64,000 nucleotides of DNA, from positions 24,475 to 88,474 of the IMG/VR virus record IMGVR_UViG_3300043411_000910. One strand, written 5' to 3'. The position numbers and the translations under genes were made by a program. Every line of letters starts with the position of its first letter. The stretch's first letter is position 1. Below are positions 1,033 through 53,165 of the stretch, piece by piece. This DNA is from a virus. The notes under the pieces were generated by a model. That model made no database searches. It was not told the origin of the DNA and worked only from the letters and a program-made list of their open reading frames with translations.

Positions 1033-1040
1033 AAGTATTG

Positions 1041-1083
1041 AATAAAAAAGTGTGTTGTTATGAAGGCAACACACTTTTTTATT
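1041..1083 (+). promoter_or_regulatory. 17-bp perfect hairpin with the HNH ATG (1060) in its loop; terminator and/or translational repressor
   Basis: AATAAAAAAGTGTGTTG (1041-1057) is the exact reverse complement of CAACACACTTTTTTATT (1067-1083). Loop is TTATGAAGG. Confidence 0.7.
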
Positions 1084-1896
1084 TTCAATGAAGAATATTA
1101 TTTTTATAACTTCAAAAGCATACAGAATGAAGATATATGCAAAAATATAATAAGTTATAGTAATACAACAAGCAATAAAATTATCCACATATCTAAAGCT
1201 TTAGGGATAAGCAAAAATACTGTTAAAACTTTCTTTAAATTAAATAGCCAAGATAAAAACGCTTTAATGCAAAGTATAACTAAAAAATCGTGTGCTATAT
1301 GCAAGCAAATTAAAGATAAAAATAATTTTTCTAAAACTAAAAAAATTACTAAATGGGGTGAGCCAATTTATAATTGTTATTGTAATATATGTCAAATAGA
1401 ATATACAAAAACAAGTGGTTTAGAGTATAGGAAAAATAATAAAGAAAAAATAATTGAAAGGTGGAATAAGTATAAGAAAAACAATAAAGAGGCTGTTAAA
1501 ATTGTACATAAAAAATATGTATTACGTAAAACAAATATAGATCCTTATTTTAAGTTCAAAAGAAATTTTTCTTTAAGAATGACTAATATTTTTAAAATAA
1601 AAGATAAAGATATGATTTATAGTTTATTCGGGTATTCTTTAGATAACCTAAAGATTCATTTGGAATCTAAATTTGAATCATGGATGAATTGGTCTAATTG
1701 GGGTAAATATAATATTTCTAGTTGGGATGATAATGATAGCACAACATGGAAATGGAATATAGACCATATAATACCACAAAGCTCATTAAAATATAAAACA
1801 ATCAATGATGAAAATTTTAAAAAATGTTGGGCACTTGATAATTTAAGACCACTATCTGCAAAAGAAAATTTGATAAAATCAAATAAGATTATATAA
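1060..1896 (+). CDS. Free-standing HNH homing endonuclease with N-terminal zinc finger
   Basis: CAIC...CNIC zinc finger, basic linker, HLESKF..WMNWSNWG..WNIDHIIP..CWALDNLRPLSAKENLIK HNH core. The true start may lie further downstream. Confidence 0.85.
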   Translation: MKATHFFIFNEEYYFYNFKSIQNEDICKNIISYSNTTSNKIIHISKALGISKNTVKTFFKLNSQDKNALMQSITKKSCAICKQIKDKNNFSKTKKITKWGEPIYNCYCNICQIEYTKTSGLEYRKNNKEKIIERWNKYKKNNKEAVKIVHKKYVLRKTNIDPYFKFKRNFSLRMTNIFKIKDKDMIYSLFGYSLDNLKIHLESKFESWMNWSNWGKYNISSWDDNDSTTWKWNIDHIIPQSSLKYKTINDENFKKCWALDNLRPLSAKENLIKSNKII

Positions 1897-1911
1897 AATA
1901 AAGCAGCAATT

Positions 1912-1943
1912 AACGCGCGATCATACGCGCGTTTTTTATTTTG
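1912..1943 (+). terminator. Rho-independent terminator
   Basis: AACGCGCG-ATCATA-CGCGCGTT followed by TTTTATTTT. Confidence 0.8.
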
Positions 1944-2009
1944 TGTGTATTATAACTAGGCATTTAATTAATATTACTAATATATAAAAATTATCTTGAG
2001 GGATATTAA

Positions 2010-2696
2010 ATGGCTAATAGTAAATTCTCGTCTTCTGCTAATACAAATTCTACACTTGGATACACTTCAGGTCAGAATAAAACTAGCACATCTTTATCAA
2101 CAAATATATTAATATATGTTGATACTGGAAATGGTATTCTACCAATAGGTGCAATACAATCATTAAGCATAAAAGAAAGTAGAGATGTAAAAATGATAAA
2201 TGAAGTTGGAACTGATGGTAACATCGATTCTGTTCCAACTAGTGCTGTGCAAATATCTGGATCTTGCAAAAGAATTAGATATGATGCTTTAAGAGCAACT
2301 GAAGCTTTTGGTAGAGCATATCTACATTTAGCTTCTCAAATCTATCCTTTTGACATTTACATCATAGACAAAAATCGTAGAAATGGTGGAAAAGTTACAA
2401 CAGTAATTAAAAATGTTTGGTTTACAGATACATCAATAGATTATAGCTCAAATGATTGGATTATAACAGATGATGTAAGCTTTAAAGCTGAAAGGGTTTA
2501 TAGCTTCCTATCTGAATCTGGTGGTAAATCAGCTGCTACTGGTGGTGATCTTGGTATTACACCTGCTGGTCCTATGAATTCTGAAGGGGTTAGCGATGTT
2601 GAAAGAGTAGTTGATGCTGGAAAGGGTGGAAGACTTGGATCTTTGGATTCAGGTGGTTTACTTGATCTAGTAGATTTCTCAAGCAACGTATTTTAA
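2010..2696 (+). CDS. Tail tube protein
   Basis: Position after sheath, GAGG RBS, myovirus tube-like pattern IGAIQSLSIKESR..INEVG..ISGSCKRIRY..IKNVWF..VSFKAERV. Confidence 0.8.
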   Translation: MANSKFSSSANTNSTLGYTSGQNKTSTSLSTNILIYVDTGNGILPIGAIQSLSIKESRDVKMINEVGTDGNIDSVPTSAVQISGSCKRIRYDALRATEAFGRAYLHLASQIYPFDIYIIDKNRRNGGKVTTVIKNVWFTDTSIDYSSNDWIITDDVSFKAERVYSFLSESGGKSAATGGDLGITPAGPMNSEGVSDVERVVDAGKGGRLGSLDSGGLLDLVDFSSNVF

Positions 2697-2709
2697 TTAA
2701 AACAAAAAT

Positions 2710-2753
2710 TGATATATAACCTATGGGAGTAATAAAATATTTCCATAGGTTAT
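2710..2753 (+). promoter_or_regulatory. TGATATATAA promoter-like motif overlapping an 11-bp inverted repeat
   Basis: TGATATATAA at 2710-2719. ATAACCTATGG (2716-2726) pairs with CCATAGGTTAT (2743-2753). Confidence 0.5.
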
Positions 2754-2770
2754 TTTATTTAAGGAATAAG

Positions 2771-3319
2771 ATGGCAGGATTTGATTCACCAATAGGCAGA
2801 AGAGATATTAAGCAAACAAAAACATTTGAAGTCGAAGATCCAGATCTAGATGAAGACATTGAAAATCAAATAAGAGAACAAAGAAAATTAAAAGCAGCTG
2901 GCAAAGAAAGAATGACCAGTAATGCTAAGAGAAGAATAGAGCTTCTTTTAAATATGACTGTACTAACAGAAGAAGTTACTTTAGGTAAAGTAAAATTTAT
3001 ACTAAGAACTCTTAAAGCTGGGGAAGTCAAAGAAATATTAAGCGTAATTAATCCATTAAGAGGATCTTATGAATTTGAGTTAGAGATGAAAAGACAAATG
3101 CTAGCTAGATCATTAGTTAAGATTAATGATTCAGAAGTGGAATCTTTTCTTGATTCAGATACTTTAGATGCTAGACTTGAATTAGTTGACTCATTAGAAT
3201 CAAGTGTTTTCACTGGACTATTTCTTGGATATGAAAAGCTACAAAATAATTCAGAAAAATATTATGGAATTGCTAATGCTGAAAATGCAAAGGAAGTAGC
3301 TGAAGAAATAAAAAAATAA
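2771..3319 (+). CDS. Tail assembly chaperone (lambda gpG-like)
   Basis: Between tube and tape measure genes. Start refined to ATG 2771, which follows an AAGGA RBS. Ends ATA AAA AAA TAA. Confidence 0.75.
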   Translation: MAGFDSPIGRRDIKQTKTFEVEDPDLDEDIENQIREQRKLKAAGKERMTSNAKRRIELLLNMTVLTEEVTLGKVKFILRTLKAGEVKEILSVINPLRGSYEFELEMKRQMLARSLVKINDSEVESFLDSDTLDARLELVDSLESSVFTGLFLGYEKLQNNSEKYYGIANAENAKEVAEEIKK

Positions 3320-3654
3320 GATTTGAACCGGATCATAGATTTATTTATGAGTTATGTAAAATCTATAGGGTAACACCAGATGATGACTTCATAACAAATA
3401 TGAATCCGGTTCTTAAGTTATGGTATTATTACAACTGGATAGGTGATAAGGAACAGCAGCAAGAAATCGCTAGAGACCATGCATATTTAACAGGTTCATT
3501 TATAGACCCAGCAGCCGTTAAAGCTTTAACTGATCAAGAAAACAAACACGTATCTACGGATGAAGAGTTTGAAGAATCATTTAAAATGGTCCAACAATAT
3601 AACAATATTAAATTAGGCAATAAACCTAGAAGAACTAGACCTAAGCGAGAATAA
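3304..3654 (+). CDS. Tail assembly chaperone frameshift extension (gpGT-like C-terminal part)
   Basis: -1 frame reads ...KKIRFEPDHRFIYELCKIYRVTPDDDFITNMNPVLKLW.... No RBS before ATG 3400. The stop overlaps the tape measure start (TAATG). Confidence 0.75.
   Translation, partial: RNKKIRFEPDHRFIYELCKIYRVTPDDDFITNMNPVLKLWYYYNWIGDKEQQQEIARDHAYLTGSFIDPAAVKALTDQENKHVSTDEEFEESFKMVQQYNNIKLGNKPRRTRPKRE
3310..3316 (+). promoter_or_regulatory. -1 programmed ribosomal frameshift slippery site A AAA AAA
   Basis: X XXY YYZ heptamer immediately before the stop codon. The -1 frame is open 3304-3654. Confidence 0.8.
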
Positions 3655-5879
3655 TGACTGATCCAAAAGATAACGAACCACTTCCAACCGTTCCTAGCGT
3701 AGAAGATACAAAAGCGGCAGCAGATTATGGTAAGGTTGTTGGTGAAAATGTTGATAAACAAAAAGACTTCACACAAGCAACTGATAAAGCAAAAGAAGCT
3801 ACAAAAGAAGTAAAAGAAGCATATAAAGGCGCTAGAGATGGCTTACTAAGTTTTATTAAAAATATTCAAACAGGCACTTCATTAACTGATGCACAATCTA
3901 TTGCTATTGGTAAATTATCTGCGCAGATATTTGATTCAACAAAAATATTTCAAAATTTTGGTGCAGCAAAACTAAGCCCTTCATTTTTAGAGCAATATTC
4001 GGATGTGTCTGACATTATAATGAAAGACATATTTCCTATGCTAAATAAAGGGGCTGATGCTGTTAATTCAGTCACTCAAAAGCTTCTTGGAATAAAATTA
4101 CCAACAGATGTTATTTCTGGTGGCGCTGCCGTAATTGATAATTATTTAAGAAAGCAATTTGCTGCCGCTGATACGGCTACAAAATTCAGAGATGAAGTAT
4201 TAGCAAATGCTGTTGCAACTGGCGTATATGGTGATGTATTAGATTCTGTTGGAGATGATTTATCAAATCTAAATAATCTTTTAGAAAACCATAATGAACT
4301 AATGATAAATGCTCAAAAAGCAACTGGTATGACAGATGAGCAAATACAATTGTTCTATAAAGAATTAAATAAGATACCAGGGGCTTTTAATAATTCAATT
4401 GCCACTGGTGGAAAGTTTAATCAAAGCATGCTTTCTGCTGTCGCAACATTATCAACTGCTACAAGAAGATCTGCTGCTGAGATAGGTGCTTCGATGATGA
4501 AGGCTTATCAAAACTATGGTGTATCAGACAAGAGAGCATTACAATTTGTTGCTAGAATGAGCGAGGCATCTAACAATCTAAAACTTCCATTTAATGTTGT
4601 AGAATCATTTATGGAAGATATAGCTGGTCAAGTTGGAATGCTTGGTGAAAATATAGATGCTTCAGCTAGGATACTTGATACTTATGCTGGTAGTTTTACT
4701 AAACTAGGACTAAGCGCAGATCAAGCTAAAAAATTAATATCAGGAATGACTAGCTCAGTATTGCAAATGAACATAGCTCAGAAAGCATTTTTATCTGCTC
4801 AATCAGGTGGTCCTGGTGGATTAATGGGTGGGTTTAGAATAGATAAGATGATGAGAGATGGTAAACTTGATGAAGTTATGAAGATGGTTGAATCTCAAAT
4901 GAAAAAACAATTTGGAAGAATTGTTACATTAGACGAAGCGGAAAAAAGCCCTCAAGCAGCAGCACAATTGGCAAAACAAAAAACATTGGTTCAATCTGGA
5001 CCTCTTGGTAAATTTGCACAAAATGATTCTGAAGCATACAGGGTATTAGAAGCTTTAAAAAACAAAGACTCTAAATCTCTATTAGAGCTTGGTAACAAAA
5101 AAGAAATGTCTGAAACTCCAGTTCAAGACTTCCTAGCAAAAGGCAATTCATTACAAGAGCAATCAATAACTATATTTAGTCAAATGGCTTCTGATCTAAC
5201 AGCAATAAAGCAAAGAGGTGTATTATCTAATCTTAGTGATACTCAATTAAGGTATTCAGCTAATCCTGGTGGAAAAATAACACCGGGAACTCCTGATTTA
5301 AATGCTGGAATGAGGGGAAGATTAAAAGCAAATGCTTTAGGTGCAAGAGAGAAGGGTGAGGAGTTATCTGAAGTAATCAGAACCGGATTTGAGAATAAAA
5401 GATTTTTATCTAATCAAAACAATGAAGCAAGCCTTCAGTTAAGAAGCTTATCAAGTAATTTAGCTCAAGATTCTAAAGATATAGCTATGGCTCAAATAAA
5501 TGCTGGTAAAATGGTTTTCGGTTCTAAAAACCTAATGGAAGAAGAACAAGCAAAGCTTGATGAAAAATATAGTAGAGAGAAGCTTTCACCAAAACCAAAT
5601 GAAGAAACAAAAAAAGTATTAGATTTAAGAAAACAAAAAAATCCATTAGAAATGCCAGAGGATGTTATTAAAGCATTTTCAGTTAGAAAATCTGCCGAAA
5701 CAGTTGCTTCAAATTTGACCAAAAGAAATGAAGATAAGATGAAAGAAAAGCAAGAGCATGATGTACATGTTGATGTAAAGTTTGATGGTGTATGTATACA
5801 TTGTAGAGAAAAAATGCAAGCAGGAGCATCGTCTCAACAAATTGCGCGAAATGCTGGGGACGCTGCTAAGCAACAATAA
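3654..5879 (+). CDS. Tape measure protein
   Basis: 741 aa, Ala/Gly/Met/Gln-rich helical sequence directly after the frameshifted chaperone. Confidence 0.75.
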   Translation: MTDPKDNEPLPTVPSVEDTKAAADYGKVVGENVDKQKDFTQATDKAKEATKEVKEAYKGARDGLLSFIKNIQTGTSLTDAQSIAIGKLSAQIFDSTKIFQNFGAAKLSPSFLEQYSDVSDIIMKDIFPMLNKGADAVNSVTQKLLGIKLPTDVISGGAAVIDNYLRKQFAAADTATKFRDEVLANAVATGVYGDVLDSVGDDLSNLNNLLENHNELMINAQKATGMTDEQIQLFYKELNKIPGAFNNSIATGGKFNQSMLSAVATLSTATRRSAAEIGASMMKAYQNYGVSDKRALQFVARMSEASNNLKLPFNVVESFMEDIAGQVGMLGENIDASARILDTYAGSFTKLGLSADQAKKLISGMTSSVLQMNIAQKAFLSAQSGGPGGLMGGFRIDKMMRDGKLDEVMKMVESQMKKQFGRIVTLDEAEKSPQAAAQLAKQKTLVQSGPLGKFAQNDSEAYRVLEALKNKDSKSLLELGNKKEMSETPVQDFLAKGNSLQEQSITIFSQMASDLTAIKQRGVLSNLSDTQLRYSANPGGKITPGTPDLNAGMRGRLKANALGAREKGEELSEVIRTGFENKRFLSNQNNEASLQLRSLSSNLAQDSKDIAMAQINAGKMVFGSKNLMEEEQAKLDEKYSREKLSPKPNEETKKVLDLRKQKNPLEMPEDVIKAFSVRKSAETVASNLTKRNEDKMKEKQEHDVHVDVKFDGVCIHCREKMQAGASSQQIARNAGDAAKQQ

Positions 5880-38173: not shown

Positions 38174-40891
38174 GTGGAAAAAATAATAATAAAGAACAAT
38201 AAAGAATGCCAACTTCAAACAGAAAATGAAGAAGTAGTAAAAAAAGTAAAAAAGCTATTATCATTTAAAGCAAGCGGTGTTGAATATACTCAAGCATATA
38301 AAAATGGATGGAATGGGATAACTTATTTGCTATCTAACAAAGGTACATTTGGTCTTGGGTTGTTAAATCATGTTATTAATAATTTACCAGAATTTGAATT
38401 TGAGATAGTAGATAACAGGAAAAATACATTTGAATATGTACCAATGGATCTATCTAAAAAACTAGAATCTATAAATATGATTCCACGAGAACATCAAGTA
38501 AGATGTTTAGATGCTGCAAAAAATAATAATAAAGGCATATTAAGATCGGCAACAGGTTCAGGGAAATGCAACAACATAGATTCTGTTAATTTAACAGAGC
38601 TTGGTATGCTCTCTTATAGGGAGCTTTCTGAGTATTTTAATATTTCTTTAAACGATGGAGAAGCTTATCCCATAAAAATAGATGTAGCTACACCATTGAA
38701 TAAAGATAGAGATGAAGCATCTATGATTTACCATGATGGTAAAACAATGTCAAAAAAAATAACTACAAGATTTGGTTACTCTGTTACCGGGACTTTAGAT
38801 CATAAAATTAAAGTAATTGACAAATCTGGTGATTTTCTTTGGAAAAGAATGGAAGACTTGTCATTTGATGATTATGCGGTTATCTCATATAATAATCAGA
38901 TGTTTGGTAAAGAAAAAATGTCAAATGATGAGGCTTATTTTCTTGGATTAATTATAGGGGATGGGTCGATTACCGATTCGCATAAAAATAGCATAACCAT
39001 AACGAATATGGATCAACATATAATAGATTTTGTAATGAAATATACCAAATCTATTGGTCTGAATCCAAAACTATCACAAACAAAATCTAAAGCGCACAAT
39101 ATACACGTACACTCTTCAAAATATAGAAAACATTTATTAAATCTTGGGGTTAAGTATTGTAAATCGACAGGTAAAGAAATTCCTAAATATATTAGAATGC
39201 TAGAGAAAGAGCCTTTATCTTACTTGATAAGGGGTATTTATGAGACAGATGGTTGGGTTGAAAAGACAAATGACTCAACTTGTATTTGTTTAGCACTTTC
39301 AAATGAAAAAATAATAGAACAGATCCAACTAATTTTACTTAATTTTGGAATTGTATCAAGCAAATCTGTAAAAAAGACAAAAAATGAAAACTCACATAAA
39401 ATTACAATATATTCATCATTTGTTGATAGATTTATGGAGCAAATTGGCTTAGATAAATTGGGTCATAAATATAATAAAGTAATGTCTAGTGTAAAAAAAG
39501 TAAAAAATGATAATGTTGATTTGATACCAAATCAAGAAGATAAGATAAATAATATATATAAAATAATCACAAAAGAAAAAATAAACTTAACTGTAAAAAA
39601 ACATACAATTAGATCATGGGCTTCATGGAGAACTCCATCTAGATCTAATTTAAAATCAATGATTTATGAATTTGAAAATAAATACAAGGAAACTTATGAT
39701 TCATTGAAAATAAAAGAAATATTGGACGGGGATTTAATCTATCTAAAGATAGAAAAAATAGAAAATGTTATGTCTGATAATTATGATTTCTCAATACCTA
39801 AAACTCATAGTTTTGTTTCGCAAGGTTTTATAAATCATAACACAATGATTGCTGCCATGATTGCTGCTGAATTTAATGAACCAACTATAATATATGTCAT
39901 AGGCTTGGATCTACTACAACAATTCCATAATTTATTTTCAAAGATATTTGATGAGGAAATTGGTTGGATTGGAAATGGAATTGTTAATCCAAAAAGAATC
40001 ACAATAGCAAGTATATGGTCATTAGGATCAGCATTAGATTTTAAAAAGACTTTATTTCTAGATGATGAGGCAACAAAAGAATTACCTGCATCATTGCAAG
40101 ATAAGAAGAAAATTCTAGAATGTTTAAAGGCAGCTAAGACTCATATAATTGATGAATGCCATGCATGTACTTGTGATACTATTCAGAGTATCTATAAATT
40201 TATAGATCCAAAAAGAATATATGGTTTATCAGGAACTCCATACAGAGATGATGGCAGTGACTTATTAGTTACTTCATTACTTGGTGAAATAATAGAAGAT
40301 GTATCTGCTTCTGAACTAATAGAAAAGAAAATCTTAACAGAGCCAATAATAAAATTTGTTATGGTTCCACATCAAAATATTCAAGTAAGAACATACAATG
40401 AAGTATACAAAGAATATGTTGTTTGTAATGAATACAGAAACAATATGATATTATCTCAATCAATTAAGCTAATAGAAAAGGGATACAAAGTTCTTGTGCT
40501 ATTTAAAACAATAGATCATGGCAAGATGCTTCTTGAAATGTTTAGAGATAAAAATGTAAATTGTGATTTGTTAAATGGTAATGATAGTTTAGATAAAAGA
40601 AATGAGGTTAAGGCTAAATTAGAAGCTGGCAATCTTGATTGTTTGATAGCTTCTACAATATTAGACATTGGTTTTGATGCTCCGATATTATCGGCATTAG
40701 TTTTAGCTGGAGCTGGGAAATCAAAGATAAGAGCATTACAAAGAATAGGAAGAATTATAAGATTTCATCCATCAAAGAAAAGATGTGCTGTGGTTGACTT
40801 TATGGATAATTGTAGATTCTTAGATAAACATTCTAAGATAAGATATGAGACGTATAAGCAGGAATCTGGATTTAAGATATTAGGAAGTTAA
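38174..40891 (+). CDS. SF2 DExH helicase (UvsW/XPB-like) containing an intein
   Basis: HQ motif, ATGSGK/T Walker A split by the intein, DECH, LSGT, IGFDAP, QRIGRIIR. Confidence 0.92.
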   Translation: MEKIIIKNNKECQLQTENEEVVKKVKKLLSFKASGVEYTQAYKNGWNGITYLLSNKGTFGLGLLNHVINNLPEFEFEIVDNRKNTFEYVPMDLSKKLESINMIPREHQVRCLDAAKNNNKGILRSATGSGKCNNIDSVNLTELGMLSYRELSEYFNISLNDGEAYPIKIDVATPLNKDRDEASMIYHDGKTMSKKITTRFGYSVTGTLDHKIKVIDKSGDFLWKRMEDLSFDDYAVISYNNQMFGKEKMSNDEAYFLGLIIGDGSITDSHKNSITITNMDQHIIDFVMKYTKSIGLNPKLSQTKSKAHNIHVHSSKYRKHLLNLGVKYCKSTGKEIPKYIRMLEKEPLSYLIRGIYETDGWVEKTNDSTCICLALSNEKIIEQIQLILLNFGIVSSKSVKKTKNENSHKITIYSSFVDRFMEQIGLDKLGHKYNKVMSSVKKVKNDNVDLIPNQEDKINNIYKIITKEKINLTVKKHTIRSWASWRTPSRSNLKSMIYEFENKYKETYDSLKIKEILDGDLIYLKIEKIENVMSDNYDFSIPKTHSFVSQGFINHNTMIAAMIAAEFNEPTIIYVIGLDLLQQFHNLFSKIFDEEIGWIGNGIVNPKRITIASIWSLGSALDFKKTLFLDDEATKELPASLQDKKKILECLKAAKTHIIDECHACTCDTIQSIYKFIDPKRIYGLSGTPYRDDGSDLLVTSLLGEIIEDVSASELIEKKILTEPIIKFVMVPHQNIQVRTYNEVYKEYVVCNEYRNNMILSQSIKLIEKGYKVLVLFKTIDHGKMLLEMFRDKNVNCDLLNGNDSLDKRNEVKAKLEAGNLDCLIASTILDIGFDAPILSALVLAGAGKSKIRALQRIGRIIRFHPSKKRCAVVDFMDNCRFLDKHSKIRYETYKQESGFKILGS
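38567..39841 (+). mobile_element. Intein with LAGLIDADG homing endonuclease (425 aa) in helicase Walker A
   Basis: GK|CNNIDS start, block B GTLDHK, LGLIIGDG and IRGIYETDG, ends HSFVSQGFINHN|T. Confidence 0.93.
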
Positions 40892-43882: not shown

Positions 43883-44998
43883 TTGATTAAGCTTACTCAA
43901 GAAGAATTTATAAACAAATGCAAAGCGATCTATAATTCCACTATGGATTACAGTGATACTAAATATATAAATGCAAGAACTGATGTACAAATTAAATGTA
44001 TGATCCATAACATGGACTTTATAATAAAGCCACAATTACATTTAAAAGGAGTTGGATGTAGGAGTTGTTGTAGGTTTATGACATTTGAAAAATTTTTATT
44101 GGAGGCTAGAGCAAAGCATAGAGATAAATTTTTATATGAGTTTAGTGGGGGTAAATTTACCAGGGATTCTAAAATAAATATAAAATGCAAAGACCACGGT
44201 TGGTTTGAGCAAGGACCAACTATTCATCTTAAATCAAGTACTGGTTGTGGTAAGTGTAGTACAATAAAAATTAATAATAAAACACTAAAAGAAAGAAAAG
44301 AGGCATTCATATCAAAAGCTAAAAAAATACATGGTGATAAATTTGACTATTCAAAAGTTGAGTATAAAAATAATATCAAAAAGATAGAAATATCATGTGA
44401 ATACCATGGCTCATTTTTTGTTATGCCAGTATCACATTTAAAACAAAGTTCTAGATGTCCAAAATGTTATTTGGGATTAATAACATTAGATACCGATGAT
44501 TTTATAATTAGATCAACAGAGACCCATGGTGACAGATATGATTACTCAAAATCTGTTTATAAAAATTCGAAAGAATATATAGAAATAATTTGCCAAAAAC
44601 ATGGCTCTTTCTTTCAGAGAGCGGGGCAGCATATATATGGTCAGGGATGTCCTGATTGTAAACCATATCATTCTGGAAAAGAAGATGAGTGGATAGGCTC
44701 TTTAAATAATCCAAATATAGTTAGAAATCACTACATAAAATATGGCAATGAAAGGATACATCCAGATGGTTTTGATCCTATAACAAACACAGTATATGAA
44801 TTTAATGGGTCATATTGGCATGGCGACAATAGAGTATTTAATCATTGCGATACTAATACTTGTGTTGGGAAAACTTTTGGTGAATTATATTCGAAAACAA
44901 TAGATAGAGAAAATAAAATAAAAGAGCTTGGTTACAATTTAGTTGTAATGTGGGAAGAAGATTATAAACAAGGAACAAATGCCAACATATTATCATGA
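43883..44998 (+). CDS. Free-standing EDxHD/Vsr-like homing endonuclease with four zinc-binding repeats
   Basis: Four repeats of F..kA...HgDkyDYS...Y.N....I.I.C..HG.F......HL...CPkC; C-terminal PDGFD..VYEFNGSYWHG..LVVMWE. Confidence 0.8.
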   Translation: MIKLTQEEFINKCKAIYNSTMDYSDTKYINARTDVQIKCMIHNMDFIIKPQLHLKGVGCRSCCRFMTFEKFLLEARAKHRDKFLYEFSGGKFTRDSKINIKCKDHGWFEQGPTIHLKSSTGCGKCSTIKINNKTLKERKEAFISKAKKIHGDKFDYSKVEYKNNIKKIEISCEYHGSFFVMPVSHLKQSSRCPKCYLGLITLDTDDFIIRSTETHGDRYDYSKSVYKNSKEYIEIICQKHGSFFQRAGQHIYGQGCPDCKPYHSGKEDEWIGSLNNPNIVRNHYIKYGNERIHPDGFDPITNTVYEFNGSYWHGDNRVFNHCDTNTCVGKTFGELYSKTIDRENKIKELGYNLVVMWEEDYKQGTNANILS

Positions 44999-45527: not shown

Positions 45528-46115
45528 ATGCTAACAGAGAAAGAAGCGCAAGATATATTTAAAAATTTCGTAGAGCTAAAAAACCTAGCAGATGGTGATA
45601 AAACATACGTAACAAAACTAAAAAGACAAGAAAATTTTATGATGAGAGAGTTTAAATACATAATTGAATCAAAAACGGCTAAATATAAAAAGCATAGTAA
45701 TTATGATGACTTAAACCAAGATGGGTATGAAGCATTGCTAATGGGGATTAAGACTTATTCACCAGATAAAGGATCTATATTCTGGTGGCTTCATAAATAT
45801 ATAGGGACAAAAGTTTCTAGATCAGCAAACATGCATTCAGTTGTAAGATCTTCAATAAAAAGATCATCTCAAGGCGACATACCAAAGTGTGATAATTCTC
45901 CTATAAATCTTGTTGATAAAACGACGCCATTTGATATTCTAAATCAAATGGAAACAGAGAAGATAGTAAAAGAAAAGCTATCAAAACTATCTAAAGAAGA
46001 TTATGATCTTATCACAAATGTTTATAAGATGAGTAATGATGATGCTGAAGAGATAAAAGCTAGTAAAGTATCAAATAAGCTTGCAAAGATACTAAGAAAA
46101 CTACGCAAAAAATGA
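45528..46115 (+). CDS. Sigma70-family RNA polymerase sigma factor
   Basis: Region 2 YDDLNQDGYEALLMGIKTYSPDKGSIFWW; shortened region 4. Confidence 0.8.
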   Translation: MLTEKEAQDIFKNFVELKNLADGDKTYVTKLKRQENFMMREFKYIIESKTAKYKKHSNYDDLNQDGYEALLMGIKTYSPDKGSIFWWLHKYIGTKVSRSANMHSVVRSSIKRSSQGDIPKCDNSPINLVDKTTPFDILNQMETEKIVKEKLSKLSKEDYDLITNVYKMSNDDAEEIKASKVSNKLAKILRKLRKK

Positions 46116-46143
46116 TAGTGTAAATTTTTGACATAACTTAACC

Positions 46144-46176
46144 AAGACCTGTTGTACCATATACACAGGTCTTTTT
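46144..46176 (+). terminator. Rho-independent terminator after sigma gene
   Basis: AAGACCTGT (46144-46152) pairs with ACAGGTCTT (46165-46173), followed by a T-run. Confidence 0.65.
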
Positions 46177-46195
46177 AATTTAAACATGGATAGGA

Positions 46196-47161
46196 ATGAT
46201 GAGTAACTTAACGCAAAAAGATAATTCTAGATTTGTTTTATTTCCAATTAAAAACCAAGAGATTTGGAAAATGTATAAAGACGCTGAAGCATCTTTTTGG
46301 ACAGCGGAAGAAGTTGATCTATCAAATGATATGATAGATTGGAATAAGCTTAGCTCAAATGAGCAGCATTTTATAAAATATGTCCTAGCTTTCTTTGCCG
46401 CTTCAGATGGTATAGTTAATGAAAACTTAGCAACTAGATTTTATAATGATGTTGGCTTAGCAGAAGCAAAAGCTTTTTATGCTTTTCAAATGATGATAGA
46501 GTCTATACACAGTGAGATGTATTCGCTTCTAATAGATACATATGTTAAAGACTCAAATGAGAAAAAAGATTTGTTTAATGCGATAGATACTGTTCCATGT
46601 GTCAGTAAAAAAGCCGAATGGGCTTTAAAGTGGATTGATTCAAACAAATCCTTTGAAGAAAGGCTAATAGCATTTGCGTGCGTTGAAGGTATATTTTTCT
46701 CTTCAAGCTTTTGTAGTATATATTGGCTAAAGAAACGTGGATTGATGCCAGGATTATCATTCTCAAATGAACTTATTTCTAGAGATGAAAACATGCATTG
46801 TGAATTTGCCTGCTTATTAAGCTCTGTATCGGATGTGAAAGTTTCTAGAGAAAGAATATTAGAAATATTGACTGAGGCAGTTGATATAGAAAGGATTTTT
46901 TGTAGTAATTCTATTCCTGTTGAATTAATAGGGATGAATAGTAAATTAATGATTCAATATGTAGAATTTATTGCTGATAGGCTTTTAAATATGTTAGGAC
47001 AAGATAAGTTCTATAATTCAAAAAATCCATTTGATTTCATGGAGTCAATAAGCTTACAAGGTAAAAGCAATTTCTTTGAAAAAAGAGTTGGCGATTACAA
47101 GAAAGCTGGTGTTGGCAACTCAAAAGAAGAAAATCAAATAGGATTTGAAGCAGACTTTTAA
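46196..47161 (+). CDS. nrdB: Class Ia ribonucleotide reductase beta subunit
   Basis: [47 protein letters not shown]. Confidence 0.97.
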
Positions 47162-47176
47162 TAATGGAGAAAAAAA

Positions 47177-48778
47177 ATGCTAGTAACTAAACGAGATGGA
47201 AGCACTGAAGTAGTAAAATTTGAAAAAATTCTAAAAAGAATCCAAAGGCAATCTAAGGATCTAAAAAACATAGACGCGCACGAAGTTGCGCAGAAAGTAA
47301 TATTGGGATTATATGATAAGGTTACCACAAAAGAGCTTGATGATTTAGCTATACAAACAGCATACGCATCTACAACAAAACATCCTGATTATGATAAATT
47401 GGCTGTCAGGCTAGAGATAACAAGACTACATAAGGAAACAGATAGTACTTTTTCAAATGTAATAGAAAGTTTAAATAAAATAAAAGATAAGAATGGTAAT
47501 GATAAGAAATTAATAGCAGAAAATGTAATGAAGTTTGTAAAGAAAAATTTGCATGTATTAAACACTGCCATAGATTATAATAGAGATTTTAAATTTGATT
47601 TTTTTGGATTAAAAACTCTTCAAAGGTCGTATCTTTTAAAAATAAATGAAAAGATCGTTGAGCGTCCGCAGCACATGTGGATGCGCGTTGCTTGTGGGAT
47701 ACATTATGATGATATTGATGCTTGTATTAATACTTATAATATGCTAAGTAATATGGAAGCTACACATGCAACACCAACATTATTTAATTCTGGTTTAATA
47801 AAGAATCAACTTTCTAGTTGCTTCCTTGTAGCAATGAAGGATGATAGTGTGTCTGGGATATATGATACATTAAAAGAATGTGCATTGATATCACAATCGG
47901 CTGGTGGTATAGGATTACATGCCCACAATATTAGATCAAAAGGATCTCCTATATATGGGACAAATGGAACAAGCAATGGATTAGTTCCTATGTTGAAAGT
48001 ATTTAATGAAACTGCCAAGTATGTTGATCAAGGTGGAAATAAACGTAAAGGAAGTATAGCTATATATCTAGAGCCGTGGCACGCCGATGTAATTGATTTT
48101 CTTGATCTAAGAAAGAATAACGGCAAAGAAGAGTTAAGGGCTAGAGATTTAAATCTTGCTATATGGGCTCCTGACTTATTCTTTAAAAGAGTTAAAGCTG
48201 ATGAAGATTGGTGCTTAATGGACCCAAATGTGTCAAAAGGTTTATCTGATGTATATGGAGATGAATTTGATGCATTATATACAAAATATGAATCTGAAGG
48301 AAAATTTGTATCTAAGGTAAAAGCTAGAGATATTTGGTCTAAGATACTAGAATCGCAATTAGAAACTGGTCAACCATATTTATTAGCAAAAGATGCTGGA
48401 AATAAAAAATCAAATCAAAAAAATATAGGAACAATAAAATCTAGCAATTTATGTATTGATGGAGATGCTTTTGTAAGGGTTAAGAAAGATTTAGATGTTA
48501 ACTCTGATGAATTTTTATTTACAATGAAAGAGGTAGATGAAATGAATAAAGCAAATAAAAATAGTCTCTATATATTAGGATACGACGAGTCTGCCAAAAG
48601 AAAAGTTTATAATAGACTAATTGCTAGTAAGCTAACAAAAGAAAAGGCTAAAGTTGTTAAAATAACATCAAATGGAAAAGAATTAAGGTGTACTCCAGAC
48701 CATAAAGTATATACAAAGAATAGGGGATACGTTGAAGCAATTAATCTAAAAGAAGATGATGAGTTAGATATAATATAA
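47177..48778 (+). CDS. nrdA: Ribonucleotide reductase alpha subunit, N-terminal fragment fused to split-intein N half
   Basis: ATP cone VTKRDG, ERPQ, ATPTLFN, QLSSCF, DQGG, KSSNL, then intein N half. Confidence 0.95.
   Translation: MLVTKRDGSTEVVKFEKILKRIQRQSKDLKNIDAHEVAQKVILGLYDKVTTKELDDLAIQTAYASTTKHPDYDKLAVRLEITRLHKETDSTFSNVIESLNKIKDKNGNDKKLIAENVMKFVKKNLHVLNTAIDYNRDFKFDFFGLKTLQRSYLLKINEKIVERPQHMWMRVACGIHYDDIDACINTYNMLSNMEATHATPTLFNSGLIKNQLSSCFLVAMKDDSVSGIYDTLKECALISQSAGGIGLHAHNIRSKGSPIYGTNGTSNGLVPMLKVFNETAKYVDQGGNKRKGSIAIYLEPWHADVIDFLDLRKNNGKEELRARDLNLAIWAPDLFFKRVKADEDWCLMDPNVSKGLSDVYGDEFDALYTKYESEGKFVSKVKARDIWSKILESQLETGQPYLLAKDAGNKKSNQKNIGTIKSSNLCIDGDAFVRVKKDLDVNSDEFLFTMKEVDEMNKANKNSLYILGYDESAKRKVYNRLIASKLTKEKAKVVKITSNGKELRCTPDHKVYTKNRGYVEAINLKEDDELDII
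48452..48775 (+). mobile_element. Split intein N half (108 aa)
   Basis: Starts SNL|CIDGDAFV; block B LRCTPDHKVYT; ends RGYVEAINLKEDDELDII then stop. Confidence 0.92.
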
Positions 48779-48840
48779 CTAATCCCTGTGGTGCTAGGTT
48801 ACGCATATATTAATATTTTATTACTGTATACACAGGTTAG
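48779..48840 (+). promoter_or_regulatory. Imperfect inverted repeat enclosing an AT-rich spacer upstream of the nuclease gene
   Basis: CTAATCCCTGTG (48779-48790) versus CACAGGTTAG (48831-48840); GGAG RBS at 48858. Confidence 0.45.
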
Positions 48841-48865
48841 ATGATTTAGTTGTTTATGGAGCATC

Positions 48866-49960
48866 ATGAAATGTAGACTTACTGGAATGGACATGGATCT
48901 TACTTTTTGGCACAGTTTAAAGAAAAATAAAATAATTAATGAAATGTATGAAGAAGAAATGCTATCTAAAAACCCAGAGGCATATAAAGCATATGTTGAA
49001 TCAAATAAACATATAAATTTCTTAAAGAAGTGGATAAAGGGAGAGGGTATAAATTGCAAAATTACTGGAAAATTAATTCCAGTAGAAAAAATAATTTCAA
49101 CACCAAATACAAATCTTTACTATTCTGATGTTGAGACTCGCATAGCTCGTGGTTCATCATTCAGGGGCAAGAAAAGACCAGAGTTTGCTAAAAAAATATC
49201 TTCTATTTTAAAAGGAAGACCAAAAACAGATGAAGATAAAAAACAAAGCTCTGATAGATTAAAGTCTATAGGATTTAAGAAAAAAGTTTTGTTAAATAAA
49301 AGCATTATAGACGAATTATGCAATGATGAGATAAAAATAAGAGAATTATATAAGAAAATGTACTCTGATCTTCAAAAAGGAATAGAGTATAAAAGAAGAT
49401 TTGTAATAAAAAATATAAATAAATATATTGAGGATTTTAATGGGTCTTTAGATTATTTAGCATTTGCACCTGAAGATGAAATAAGAATAATATTTAGTGA
49501 ATTACAGTCGATAAAGTCATCGATAGCCATGAGGGATAACCCAACCATGGGCAATGCCAAAGTAGTACTAATGACTGACCTTAAGCATAATAATAACGGG
49601 CTAGTTGAAGTTAAAGTAAGGTCGGTCATGGAGTCAGAAATAATAAAAATGTTCGAAAGATATGGTGTAAAATGGGAATATGAAACGGAGACTATTGAAT
49701 ACTTCTATCTTTTCAATAGAAAATATACGGTTGATTTTAAATTTTATTATAACGATAAAATATATTATTTAGAAGTTAAAGGGTCCGTTAGATCTACTGA
49801 TCACGATAAAATAGTAACCAAGGCTGAATTCGCTGTTAAGAAATTCGATAATTATATCTTTTATCAAAAAGAATTGATATTAAATATCGATGACTTAATA
49901 AAATATAGGTTAACTCCTGATGATAAAATAAAAATAAAACACTTGTACGAGGTTAAATGA
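48866..49960 (+). CDS. Free-standing putative homing endonuclease: NUMOD3-like repeat plus PD-(D/E)XK (T7 endonuclease I/TnsA-like) domain
   Basis: GKKRPEFAKKISSILKGRPKT; VRSVMESE..GVKWEYE..YTVDF..YLEVKG. Confidence 0.8.
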   Translation: MKCRLTGMDMDLTFWHSLKKNKIINEMYEEEMLSKNPEAYKAYVESNKHINFLKKWIKGEGINCKITGKLIPVEKIISTPNTNLYYSDVETRIARGSSFRGKKRPEFAKKISSILKGRPKTDEDKKQSSDRLKSIGFKKKVLLNKSIIDELCNDEIKIRELYKKMYSDLQKGIEYKRRFVIKNINKYIEDFNGSLDYLAFAPEDEIRIIFSELQSIKSSIAMRDNPTMGNAKVVLMTDLKHNNNGLVEVKVRSVMESEIIKMFERYGVKWEYETETIEYFYLFNRKYTVDFKFYYNDKIYYLEVKGSVRSTDHDKIVTKAEFAVKKFDNYIFYQKELILNIDDLIKYRLTPDDKIKIKHLYEVK

Positions 49961-50055
49961 TAAAAATAGAATTGATAAATGAAGAAGTTGATGTTTATGA
50001 TTTTACAATAGAAAATACTCATAATTTTTATGCTAACGACATACTTGTTCATAAT
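49957..50055 (+). mobile_element. Split intein C half (33 aa)
   Basis: MIKIELINEEVDVYDFTIENTHNFYANDILVHN|C, with blocks F and G and Cys at +1. Confidence 0.93.
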
Positions 50056-51147
50056 TGTTGTGAAATTTTTGAAGTATCTTCTCCGGAAGAAACTGCTGTT
50101 TGTAATTTAGCCTCTATCTCGTTACCATCATTTATAGATAATAAAAATGGGAGAAAAAGCTTTAACTTCTCAAGATTAATAGAGACTTCTAAAACATTGA
50201 CAGAGAATTTAAACAAAATAATAGACAATGAGTATTATCCTGTAGAATCAGCTAAAAAATCAAATAACAGACATAGACCAATAGGTATTGGTGTTCAGGG
50301 TTTAGCTGATGTGTTTGCTCAAATGAGATATTCATGGGAAAGTGAAGAGGCTAAGAAATTAAACAAAGATATTTTTGAATCTATATATTATGGATTCTTA
50401 TGTAAGTCCAATGAACTATCAGAGAAGCTAGGATCATATGAAACATTTGCAGGTAGCCCAGCATCCGAAGGAATGTTACAGTTTGATTTGTGGGGTGTTG
50501 AAGAGTCAAATAGATATGATTGGGGGTCACTAAAAGAAAAGATAAAGCAAAGTGGGTTAAGAAATTCATTAGGGTTAGCGCCAATGCCAACTGCATCCAC
50601 TTCTCAAATAATGGGTAATACCGAATGTTTTGAGCCAATAACCTCTAACATATATAAAAGAGCAACATTATCTGGAGAATTTATACAATTAAATAAATAT
50701 CTTGTAGACGATTTGATTGAGTTAGGATTATGGAATGATCAGATAAGACAAAAGATAATAGCAGCAGAAGGATCAATTCAAAACATAGACGAGATTCCAT
50801 CTGATTTAAAGAAATTATATAAAACAGTTTGGGAAATGTCTCAAAAGGTTTTGATAGATATGTCTGCTGATCGTGCTCCATTTATATGTCAATCACAAAG
50901 TTTAAATCTTTATTTTAAAGATGCTAATTTTGCCAAACTAACATCAGCATATTTCTATGGGTGGGAGAAGGGATTAAAGACAATAGTTTATTATACAAGA
51001 ACGCAAAATAAGAGTGCTCAGAAATTTACTGTTGAATATAATATAGAAAAAGAATTGAAAGAAAAAGCAAAACAAAAAGAAGTTGAGACTGAAGAATTAT
51101 CTTGCTCATTAGATAATCCAGATGCATGTTTATCTTGCGGTAGCTAA
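49957..51147 (+). CDS. nrdA: Split-intein C half fused to ribonucleotide reductase alpha C-terminal fragment
   Basis: GAGG RBS; after the intein: CCEI, VCNLAS, RPIGIGVQGL, MPTASTS, QSQS, YY and C-terminal CLSCGS. Confidence 0.95.
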   Translation: MIKIELINEEVDVYDFTIENTHNFYANDILVHNCCEIFEVSSPEETAVCNLASISLPSFIDNKNGRKSFNFSRLIETSKTLTENLNKIIDNEYYPVESAKKSNNRHRPIGIGVQGLADVFAQMRYSWESEEAKKLNKDIFESIYYGFLCKSNELSEKLGSYETFAGSPASEGMLQFDLWGVEESNRYDWGSLKEKIKQSGLRNSLGLAPMPTASTSQIMGNTECFEPITSNIYKRATLSGEFIQLNKYLVDDLIELGLWNDQIRQKIIAAEGSIQNIDEIPSDLKKLYKTVWEMSQKVLIDMSADRAPFICQSQSLNLYFKDANFAKLTSAYFYGWEKGLKTIVYYTRTQNKSAQKFTVEYNIEKELKEKAKQKEVETEELSCSLDNPDACLSCGS

Positions 51148-51165
51148 TTAATATCATATACTGTT

Positions 51166-51750
51166 ATGTTTAACTTTGAAAAGATATCAAAAGAACTTAA
51201 TAAGGATAAGTATTTTTATCATTTGAAATCAGAGGACTTTAGTGGTAAAATTATTTATCCTTTATCTACTTTGAAAGAAAAGGACAATAAAGTTTATAAG
51301 CAATCTATTAAGAAATATAAAGGTCGTGAAAATCAATTAACAACAAAAATAGATTTGTTAAATTGTGAATGGCAAGATTGCATAAATTTATCTACATTGA
51401 ATCCTGCTAAAATATTTGAGGCGGCATTTTTATTAGGTCTTAAAAACAATGAATATAATATTGGTAAAGAAATATTAAGATTTCCTATATCATGTTTGGA
51501 GGGCAAAAAGTTTTGTTTATACAATGATGGTAAAATAGATGATTCTAAATCATATTCTAAAGTTACTGTTAAGTCGTATAAAGAACTAGAGTTTGTACCT
51601 AGTGAAACAATGAAATACTTTGCTGAATGTAAAGATAATGATGAAGACCCTTTGATATTTAGTGATGTTGTGCATATCTTATTAAAAGATGAATTGGATA
51701 TAAGTGAAGCTGATGTTGTAAAATACGAACCTAGCAAAATATACTACTGA
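51166..51750 (+). CDS. Hypothetical protein
   Basis: 194-aa ORF with typical codon usage. Confidence 0.65.
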   Translation: MFNFEKISKELNKDKYFYHLKSEDFSGKIIYPLSTLKEKDNKVYKQSIKKYKGRENQLTTKIDLLNCEWQDCINLSTLNPAKIFEAAFLLGLKNNEYNIGKEILRFPISCLEGKKFCLYNDGKIDDSKSYSKVTVKSYKELEFVPSETMKYFAECKDNDEDPLIFSDVVHILLKDELDISEADVVKYEPSKIYY

Positions 51751-51767
51751 TAGTCTATAAGAATAAG

Positions 51768-51776
51768 TGTTATAAT
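51768..51776 (+). promoter_or_regulatory. Extended -10 promoter TGTTATAAT
   Basis: Perfect TGn-TATAAT in the intergenic gap before phoH. Confidence 0.6.
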
Positions 51777-51833
51777 CTAGGTGAATGACAAAGGAATAAA
51801 AGATTATACATTTTGTAAAGTGAAAATCTCTGC

Positions 51834-51879
51834 AATCCTTCATTCCAATAAATAAATATCGGGATGAAGGATTTTTTTT
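51834..51879 (+). terminator. Terminator hairpin in the phoH leader
   Basis: AATCCTTCATTCC pairs with GGGATGAAGGATT (one G-U pair), with an 8-T run. Confidence 0.7.
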
Positions 51880-51902
51880 AAACAAAGGAAAAGATACATA
51901 AA

Positions 51903-53165
51903 ATGAGTAAAATCTACGTCTTAGATACTTCGGCAATTGTAGATGAACCAACAATACTCTATTCATTTAAAGATTCAATAATTATTATACCATTCGTAGT
52001 CCTAGAAGAGTTAGATAAATTAAAGACTTTCAATAATGATGCCTCTAGAAATGCACGCTTAGCTATTAGATTCCTCGATCAAATATTTGAGGACTCAAAT
52101 ATAGCTCACATCCAATCAAATTGTAAGATAAGAATAGAATTTGATTATGATAACCTATTCGATGATATGTCATATGGCGATAATCAAATAGTTGCTTGTG
52201 CTGTTAGAATTAAGAAAACATATAAAAAAGATGTTACACTAATAACATCAGACATAAATCTAAAAGTTAAAGCTAAATCCATGGACTTAAAAGCAGAATC
52301 ATTTGCTTCAACAGTTTCCATATTTGATATGTATCCTTACCTAGAAATGTGCTCTGATATAGATCTATTAACTAAAATCCAACTACACCAACAAGCCGAA
52401 GATGATATGGGTCTAGTTAATAATTCATTCATCTTATTTGAAGATGAATATGGTAAATCACAATGCCTATCAAGGAAACATGCCGATGGAAAAATAAAGC
52501 TTATAAAGAAACATAATCCCTGGGGATTGTCTTGTAAGAACAAAGAGCAGTCATGTCTTGTAGATTTAATAATGGATAAAAATGTAAGCTTAGTTACAGC
52601 AATGGGTGTCGCTGGATCTGGTAAAAGCTTATTAGCTATTGCTTGTGCTCTAGAACTAGTATTAGAACAAAAAAAATATGATAAAATAATAATCTATAGA
52701 CCAATCCAAGAAACAGGCGAATCTATAGGGTATTTGCCTGGCTCACAAGAAGAAAAACTAGCTCCATATTTTACAGCTGTAATGGACTCATTTGAGTTTC
52801 TTCTAGCTCATAAGAATCCAGATTGGAAACGAACACTAGATATGTATGTTTCAAAAGGTAAAATTGAATTAGATTCAATGACTTTTATTAGAGGCAGGTC
52901 TATCCCAAATACTTTGATAATTCTTGATGAATGTCAAAATGTTGCAGAAAAAGATGTTAAAACATTTTTAACTAGAATAGGTGAAGGATCTAAAGTTGTC
53001 ATCTTAGGTGATATAGAACAGATTGATAGTGATAGACTAAATATAGTTAACAATGGTTTATCAAAAGTAATGCAGAAGTTTAAAGGATCAGAATTATATG
53101 GTCACGTTACTTTGACCAAGGGCGAAAGATCTAAATTAGCCGCGGAAGCAGCTAAGTTGTTATAA
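51903..53165 (+). CDS. phoH: PhoH2-type protein (PIN RNase + PhoH ATPase)
   Basis: VLDTSAI..VLEELD..GDNQI..SDINL PIN domain; GVAGSGKS, IGYLPG, RGRS, DECQN. Confidence 0.92.
   Translation: MSKIYVLDTSAIVDEPTILYSFKDSIIIIPFVVLEELDKLKTFNNDASRNARLAIRFLDQIFEDSNIAHIQSNCKIRIEFDYDNLFDDMSYGDNQIVACAVRIKKTYKKDVTLITSDINLKVKAKSMDLKAESFASTVSIFDMYPYLEMCSDIDLLTKIQLHQQAEDDMGLVNNSFILFEDEYGKSQCLSRKHADGKIKLIKKHNPWGLSCKNKEQSCLVDLIMDKNVSLVTAMGVAGSGKSLLAIACALELVLEQKKYDKIIIYRPIQETGESIGYLPGSQEEKLAPYFTAVMDSFEFLLAHKNPDWKRTLDMYVSKGKIELDSMTFIRGRSIPNTLIILDECQNVAEKDVKTFLTRIGEGSKVVILGDIEQIDSDRLNIVNNGLSKVMQKFKGSELYGHVTLTKGERSKLAAEAAKLL

Follow-up and report, generated by a model that had tools for sequence, protein, structure and literature searches.

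The large-subunit gene of a class Ia ribonucleotide reductase (RNR), nrdA, is broken in two in a 64,000-nucleotide stretch of viral DNA (the window), and a free-standing nuclease gene stands between the pieces. The break lies directly before the thiyl-radical cysteine, and what fills it is, judged from its sequence, a naturally split class-1 intein. The window is the final 64 kb of the 88,474-base IMG/VR record IMGVR_UViG_3300043411_000910, for which CheckV gives a completeness of 21%; this figure suggests a large phage genome, and the source is probably an uncultured aquatic (freshwater) phage. As an explanation of the whole locus, a fractured nrdA with a trans-splicing split intein and a homing-endonuclease insert is in our judgement very probable.

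Layout of the fractured nrdA locus

Downstream of nrdB there are three open reading frames (ORFs), all on the same strand as nrdB. The features of the locus are as follows (window positions, all on the + strand).

46196..47161, +: nrdB, the RNR small subunit, directly upstream (Pfam Ribonuc_red_sm, E 2.6e-107)
47177..48778, +: NrdA-N ORF, N-extein plus intein-N, 533 aa
47177..48451, +: NrdA N-extein, 425 aa, ending ...SSNL (Pfam; pT24 alignment)
48452..48775, +: intein-N, 108 aa (sequence; NrdJ-1 intein 8ubs, E 3.8e-12)
48452-48454, +: Cys1 of intein-N, directly after ...SSNL
48692-48703, +: block B of intein-N, T81-P-D-H84 (sequence)
48776-48778, +: stop codon TAA of NrdA-N (sequence)
48779..48865, +: spacer, 87 nt (sequence)
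48842-48844, +: second in-frame stop, TGA, in the spacer (sequence)
48858-48861, +: GGAG in the spacer, 4 nt 5' of the nuclease ATG (sequence)
48866..49960, +: putative homing endonuclease of 364 aa, free-standing (ORF, homology, fold)
49949..49960, +: GAGG and ATGA overlap (sequence)
49957..51147, +: NrdA-C ORF, intein-C plus C-extein, 396 aa
49957..50055, +: intein-C, 33 aa, with an acidic first strand (sequence; ends VHN)
50056..51147, +: NrdA C-extein, 363 aa plus stop (pT24 alignment; Pfam)

According to Pfam, the N-extein holds the ATP-cone, the all-alpha domain and the first half of the barrel, and the C-extein carries the remaining barrel. The Tyr-Tyr pair and a pair of Cys at the C-terminus are found in the C-extein, and the second active-site Cys of NrdA is likewise in place. 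The RNR barrel profile itself is divided, positions 1-213 being matched in NrdA-N and 197-523 in NrdA-C. Of the GenBank phages, Tenacibaculum phage pT24 gives the best DNA match, and its NrdA, which is uninterrupted, served as reference for the exteins. The N-extein aligns to its residues 1-427 with 59% identity and the C-extein to residues 428-809, the end of the protein, with 52% identity. The exteins abut at residues 427/428, with nothing lost or duplicated, and the C-extein contributes, as its +1 Cys, the thiyl-radical Cys of N-L-C-x-E. The closest GenBank phage nrdA genes are uninterrupted, which makes the insert a gain.

At the downstream junction, GAGG (49949-49952) stands 4 nt ahead of the NrdA-C ATG, and the nuclease stop TGA (49958-49960) overlaps the NrdA-C start (49957-49959) as ATGA. 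Because of this overlap the nuclease and NrdA-C are probably co-transcribed and possibly translationally coupled. This layout had been described in an original prediction on this DNA, namely NrdA-N ending SSNL|C, where an intein-N of 108 aa is closed by a stop, then a nuclease gene separating the two halves, and NrdA-C with its own ribosome-binding site and a 33-aa intein-C ending HN|CCEI. All these details were reproduced. The prediction had further named a naturally split intein at the catalytic cysteine, and here motifs, domains and extein colinearity agree.

Reality of the split

Could the split be an error of assembly? Part of the window is contained in 19 public sequencing runs. Logan contigs from 4 runs of 3 studies, apart from the probable source sample, span positions 48452, 48776, 48866, 49957 and 50056 with 0 differences and 0 gaps, and there is no joint that skips the insert. 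A variant of NrdA-N, 96-97% identical (P0007), occurs on 4 further contigs with the same 533-aa ORF length. Since contigs from three other studies bridge each junction without differences, the split is not an assembly error, and the stops and the frame change, for which the prediction had proposed read mapping, are borne out.

A related alternative is that an artefact of assembly or sequencing, or else read-through or frameshifting, hides one long polypeptide in which the nuclease would be an ordinary intein domain. It may draw on the fact that NrdA-N and the nuclease ORF share a reading frame. However, two different stops, TAA at 48776 and TGA at 48842, precede the nuclease ORF in that frame and NrdA-C lies in another, which makes read-through implausible; the junctions recur unchanged in the three studies, and three other loci have the same three-ORF layout. 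We regard this alternative as exceedingly improbable.

Another way to restore a continuous gene would be removal of the insert from the RNA, if it were an intron of group I or II that bears the nuclease ORF. Phage RNR genes do often host introns (PMC3653736), but no Rfam intron family is found in 46000-52000 even at E <= 1, and the flanks of the nuclease gene encode genuine intein halves in frame with the exteins. There is hardly any probability left for an intron.

Identity and predicted splicing competence of the intein

Among solved inteins, intein-N matches the NrdJ-1 intein 8ubs at the E value listed above, and intein-C matches 9hth (1.7e-5), 4o1r (9.5e-4), 8ubs (1.5e-3) and 6qaz (2.3e-3), a set that comprises a PolB intein, DnaB inteins, NrdJ-1 and gp41-1. 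Values in this range exclude chance similarity for both halves. With the Pfam model Intein_splicing, each half alone falls below the cut-off, and a genome scan gives 36.1 bits, above it; NrdA-N ends with a weak match to this model and NrdA-C starts with a match to its last 32 positions. All the residues that mark a class-1 intein are present: Cys1 in block A, TxxH in block B, the block F Asp, the penultimate His, the terminal Asn and the +1 Cys. Block F reads V-Y-D...T-H-N-F-Y-A-N and block G ...V-H-N, followed by C-C-E-I from 50056. The T and H of block B are invariant in the alignments of intein-N with its relatives, and the block F/G ending and the +1 Cys are identical in all 78 of the 78 intein-C matches listed.

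The closest solved relative of intein-N is NrdJ-1 (8ubs, 9omb), which likewise comes from a fractured phage RNR gene, and both intein-C halves end ...H-N-F-[FY]-A-N-D-I-L-V-H-N. It differs in that its host is a class II RNR and its insertion point lies one residue more C-terminal (PMC2677866). Similarity to Npu/Ssp DnaE is marginal (E 0.5-0.9). These inteins are also naturally split, class-1 and broken at the same structural site, but the genes for their two halves lie at distant genome positions and have no nuclease between them. At the DNA level, the intein-C region (window 49982-50061) is 77.5% identical over 80 nt to Campylobacter phages CP21/F379/CJLB-13; the counterpart there lies in T4-gp43-like DNA polymerase genes, and the related intein end thus sits in a different host gene.

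Is splicing then required for an active enzyme? Since the active-site loop is where the break falls, and since every relative listed keeps the splicing residues, active NrdA should need protein trans-splicing, in agreement with what had been predicted. There is one precedent for another solution. In Aeromonas phage Aeh1, nrdA is also carried as two ORFs in one operon with a free-standing homing endonuclease (mobE, HNH) between them, and its halves, which have no intein and another split site, assemble non-covalently (PMC2677866, PMC3045599). By analogy, the NrdA pieces of the window might assemble without splicing, the intein halves being mere docking domains. In that case 141 aa of intein would stay attached within the N-L-C-x-E loop. 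Moreover, Cys1, TxxH, the block F Asp, the terminal HN and the +1 Cys are all kept in the relatives listed, and such conservation is expected only if splicing itself is selected, which speaks against docking alone. We therefore consider non-covalent assembly very unlikely.

It might also be that the insertion inactivated nrdA and that the gene is decaying, the phage relying on the host RNR. A degenerating, intein-ridden nrdA has been proposed for Campylobacter phages (PMC3653736). In the window, however, both ORFs are intact and the catalytic and radical-transfer motifs all align with the pT24 NrdA; the 533-aa ORF is retained in the P0007 variant on its 4 contigs, and the split arrangement persists across exteins that are only 42-74% identical. 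Decay is accordingly given little probability, similar to that of non-covalent assembly, and a working enzyme rebuilt by trans-splicing remains our preferred explanation.

The nuclease between the halves

What kind of nuclease is encoded between the two halves? Its predicted parts are listed here.

49160..49255, +: NUMOD3-like DNA-binding motif, residues 99-130 (G-K-K-R-P-E...), 66% identity and E 8e-11 to a NUMOD3 repeat
49604..49900, +: PD-(D/E)xK nuclease domain, residues about 247-345 (T7 endonuclease I alignment, fold)
49631-49633, +: candidate catalytic residue E256
49733-49735, +: candidate catalytic residue D290
49772-49774, +: candidate catalytic residue E303
49778-49780, +: candidate catalytic residue K305

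The reference repeat for residues 99-130 is that of an HNH endonuclease in locus L005, which scores NUMOD3 three times at E 2.5e-14; the Pfam NUMOD3 model gives no match to the window nuclease itself. In 40 diverse family members R104 and P105 of the motif are invariant, as are E256, D290, E303, K305 and G306 of the nuclease domain. A profile alignment to T7 endonuclease I (1m0d/2pfj) brings S-x-x-E, P/V-D-F and E-x-K-G into register, and phrog_945, annotated 'endonuclease', is matched at 2e-9. The Pfam family Phage_endo_I matches 3 of 6 close relatives of the nuclease at E <= 10 (best 8.3e-7), and TnsA-N and DUF790 also appear. The AlphaFold model has a mean pLDDT of 70.5; it is confident over residues 234-345 and below 50 over residues 61-117. 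Its best structural matches are TnsA (Z 8.0), Bax1 (6.4), Vsr (6.3), I-Bth0305I (6.1) and also Hjc, all of them PD-(D/E)xK folds, and Foldseek against the PDB gives no match for the model at E <= 1e-3. The NUMOD3-like residues together with the nuclease domain point to the bipartite binder-plus-nuclease design typical of phage homing endonucleases.

Two narrower assignments were tried and rejected. Membership in the T7 endonuclease I family (PF05367) failed on its score, below the gathering cut-off, and the protein was filed as PD-(D/E)xK, T7 endonuclease I/TnsA-like. Membership among the Vsr-like/EDxHD nucleases was dropped as well, since neither the protein nor the profile matches 3r3p or Vsr in the PDB by sequence at E <= 10, and there is no His-type site. 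With those nucleases the superfamily fold alone is held in common (Z 6.1-6.3). I-Bth0305I and I-Ssp6803I share this restriction-endonuclease-like fold (Z 6.1 to 3r3p; 2ost is listed by Foldseek) and some Vsr-like members also have NUMOD3 N-terminal to the catalytic domain, but no sequence match to I-Bth0305I or I-Ssp6803I is found at E <= 10, and the predicted site is E...D...ExK as in T7 endonuclease I where that of Vsr/EDxHD uses His. By these assignments the type of the window nuclease differs from the GIY-YIG and Vsr-like types reported for fractured genes.

How far is this family distributed? Among 5.8 billion proteins there are 4 close homologues (41-46% identity) and 1 remote one (27%). 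At E <= 1e-3 a profile search of 1.84 billion representatives yields 192 clusters, and 39 remain at E <= 1e-30; most are 300-370 aa long. Searching 50,697 GenBank phage records by tblastn with the family members P0002 and P0131 gave no match, and neither did pattern scans of viral contigs with the window nuclease alone or with P0131. Members lie between split nrdA halves in three further loci, L002, L003 and L095, where the distance from nuclease stop to NrdA-C start is 0, 1 and 2 nt, respectively; a fourth further locus probably exists on a 178-kb contig that has P0002 together with P0010, a relative of the window intein-N. A literature search found no description of a T7-endonuclease-I-like/NUMOD3 homing endonuclease, which is no proof that none exists.

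Strand charges and polarity

The original prediction had pointed to a strongly acidic intein-C (7 D/E, 1 K) and a basic central patch in intein-N. Both counts hold: intein-C has 7 D/E, 1 K and no R, a net charge of -6. For comparison among loci, strand charge was defined as the net charge of the 22 residues before block B in intein-N and of the first 16 residues in intein-C. These two segments dock the halves onto each other in DnaE and gp41-1. For the window the values are +5 (before TPDH) and -4. The loci with the same nuclease family have the following values.

L002, the closest extein relative: intein-N -3, intein-C +1
L003: intein-N -1, intein-C +2

Note that the charges of the contacting strands anticorrelate (Pearson r = -0.85, 41 unique pairs), with the window as the N-positive/C-negative extreme among the loci scored. 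Of the closer intein-N relatives, P0009 has a basic strand, and P0008 and P0010 are without it. Polarity changes at least 5 times on the extein tree.

Is the acidic intein-C unusual, as had been claimed? It is the majority state in the nrdA intein set scored, negative charges are described as prevailing in the intein-C of gp41-1, the reverse of Npu DnaE (bioRxiv 10.1101/546465), and both polarities were listed already by Dassa et al. in 2009 (PMC2677866), so that part of the claim falls. The contrast drawn with the basic C halves of DnaE-type inteins is correct. Electrostatic steering acts between the same two strands in Npu/Ssp DnaE with opposite polarity, and the window intein at +5/-4 does not have the DnaE pattern of acidic intein-N and basic intein-C. 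gp41-1 (6qaz) has the polarity of the window and a similar intein-C (E 2.3e-3), and differs in its helicase host gene, its +1 Ser and a shorter intein-N; it is not among the sequence matches to the window intein-N. According to Dassa et al. 2009, NrdJ-1 has the opposite polarity to the window, and NrdA-2 is reported as N-negative/C-positive where the window is N-positive/C-negative (PMC2677866).

The charge feature is thus real and at the extreme of the set, and not new, and it gives no guarantee of orthogonality. In Npu DnaE a swap of strand charges alone did not stop cross-reaction with the wild-type partner (bioRxiv 10.1101/546465). With an intein-N 35-49% identical to those of the other viral-contig loci scored, a new orthogonal split intein, as suggested earlier, is possible.

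Frequency of the arrangement and turnover of the nuclease

The definition of "fractured genes" is due to Dassa et al. (2009), who described NrdA-1 to NrdA-7 at the same integration point (PMC2677866). The window locus has the features of such a gene: the host gene forms two same-strand ORFs with one intein half each, a stop follows intein-N, intein-C has its own start, an endonuclease ORF stands between the halves, and the site of integration lies directly N-terminal to the thiyl-radical Cys. It agrees with NrdA-1 to NrdA-7 in host gene, integration point, the split between blocks B and F, the endonuclease ORF between the halves and the phage context. Besides the polarity of NrdA-2, given above, there are two differences. 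Their endonucleases are GIY-YIG or Vsr-like and that of the window would be a canonical PD-(D/E)xK enzyme like T7 endonuclease I/TnsA; and the window extein is closest to phages of Bacteroidota hosts, not to cyanophages.

The arrangement had been called rare. To the contrary, when three intein-C starts were aligned and IMG/VR was scanned with them, at least 465 confirmed intein-C relatives came up. For the locus statistics the best 80 of these were taken, of which 75 were scorable: 61 of the 75 have a split intein at N-L|C of which both halves were identified, 2 have contiguous inteins, and 12 have too little upstream DNA to decide. The genes found between the halves are as follows.

GIY-YIG: 46 loci
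LEM-3-type GIY-YIG: 5 loci
no gene: 4 loci
PD-(D/E)xK type as in the window: 3 loci
HNH: 2 loci
DUF7487: 1 locus

The extein tree shows 8 or more changes of nuclease class. Nuclease turnover at the N-L|C site is thus frequent, and the layout is common in viral metagenomes. Five nuclease classes or none at a single intein site support repeated invasion and replacement by free-standing nucleases.

The four loci without a nuclease gene (L014, L017, L040 and L045) have the split intein at the same site, with gaps of 248, 65, -4 and 86 nt, respectively. They may represent the state after nuclease loss, and are candidate natural targets of the nucleases. A more complicated case is L010 (IMGVR_UViG_3300012269_000002, 1-5269), in which nrdA is broken at three places: a full LAGLIDADG intein follows ...L-S-S-C; after ...Y-V-D-Q the ORF closes with a tail resembling an intein-N, and M-R-A-R-D-L-F is the start of the following piece; and at the third break, N-L|C, a split intein is accompanied by a LEM-3-type GIY-YIG gene.

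Proposed mechanism and its weight

How could such a locus arise and work? In the scenario we propose, a free-standing homing-endonuclease gene would have broken the intein coding sequence at the usual endonuclease-insertion site. Three proteins would be made: NrdA-N with intein-N, the nuclease, and intein-C with NrdA-C. The intein halves would associate, aided by the complementary charges of the basic intein-N strand and the acidic first strand of intein-C, and trans-splicing would join ...SSNL to CCEI..., yielding a seamless active NrdA. The nuclease would be a bipartite selfish element, with its NUMOD3-like part for DNA binding and its PD-(D/E)xK domain for catalysis; most likely it cleaves those nrdA alleles of co-infecting phages that have no nuclease, and is passed on through recombinational repair.

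Some observations count against parts of this picture. The score of the nuclease with Phage_endo_I (PF05367) is 21.2 bits, below the gathering cut-off of 29.1. In 3 of 3 independent polarity flips on well-supported branches the N strand shifts in the complementary way, with p 0.25 in an underpowered test. One screen that included NrdA-2 described it as not characterised before. Finally, a regulatory hairpin or late-promoter element lies upstream of the endonuclease in 15 of 16 published fractured loci (PMC2677866), and in the window the fold of 48770-48880 is no better than that of shuffled sequences (z 0.63), so that no hairpin is indicated. Nor does the 87-nt spacer contain TATAAATA, the late-promoter element, and consensus scans for promoters and terminators gave results no better than shuffles. 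Such elements are a frequent accessory of fractured genes and not strictly defining.

What does the locus add to present knowledge? The phenomenon itself adds little: site-identical fractured RNR genes were described in 2009 and are abundant in viral metagenomes. At the level of sequence the locus is a new addition to a kind known since then, with the nuclease type and the charge-flipped allelic series as its less ordinary parts. One joint reading would combine an undescribed NUMOD3-like plus PD-(D/E)xK homing-endonuclease family with repeated compensated polarity flips in allelic nrdA split inteins; we put it forward tentatively, as something short of probable. Its first part, a family of about 190 clusters at 50% identity, all environmental, with every locus of examinable context at the nrdA N-L|C site, is held with the same reserve. 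If the reading is true, charge flips may give naturally orthogonal pairs and prevent mis-pairing of the halves of co-infecting phages. The practical value would lie in a divergent, short (108 + 33 aa) Cys1/Cys+1 split intein of gp41-1-type polarity, for which the opposite-polarity allelic relatives L002, L003 and L095 offer a natural panel on strand charge versus orthogonality. The nuclease would be a third catalytic type in fractured genes and a candidate scaffold for sequence-specific nucleases.

Neighbouring genes

The surroundings of nrdA are partly shared with L002. Just upstream of nrdB there is a sigma-factor-like ORF (window 45528-46115, +), which has a syntenic ORF in L002 (1545-2207), and the shared block runs from a DnaB-like helicase over a zinc-ribbon ORF, the sigma-like ORF and nrdB, and takes in the fractured nrdA. 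A fusion of PIN and PhoH (PIN_4 + PhoH) is encoded at 51903-53165 (+), two genes downstream of nrdA. Directly after the DnaB-like helicase lies an ORF of 371 aa (43883-44998, +) with repeated Cys-rich modules, a C-terminal motif ...Y-E-F-N-G-S-Y-W-H-G-D and a weak match to Pfam DUF723; a PDB search by sequence gave no match for it, and its appearance is that of a further nuclease or homing-endonuclease gene of the free-standing kind. Further upstream, the Walker-A loop of a UvsW-like SF2 helicase of 905 aa (38174-40891, +) is interrupted by a contiguous intein that has a LAGLIDADG endonuclease (G-S-G-K|C ... H-N|T). The phage thus has a classical and a split intein less than 10 kb apart.

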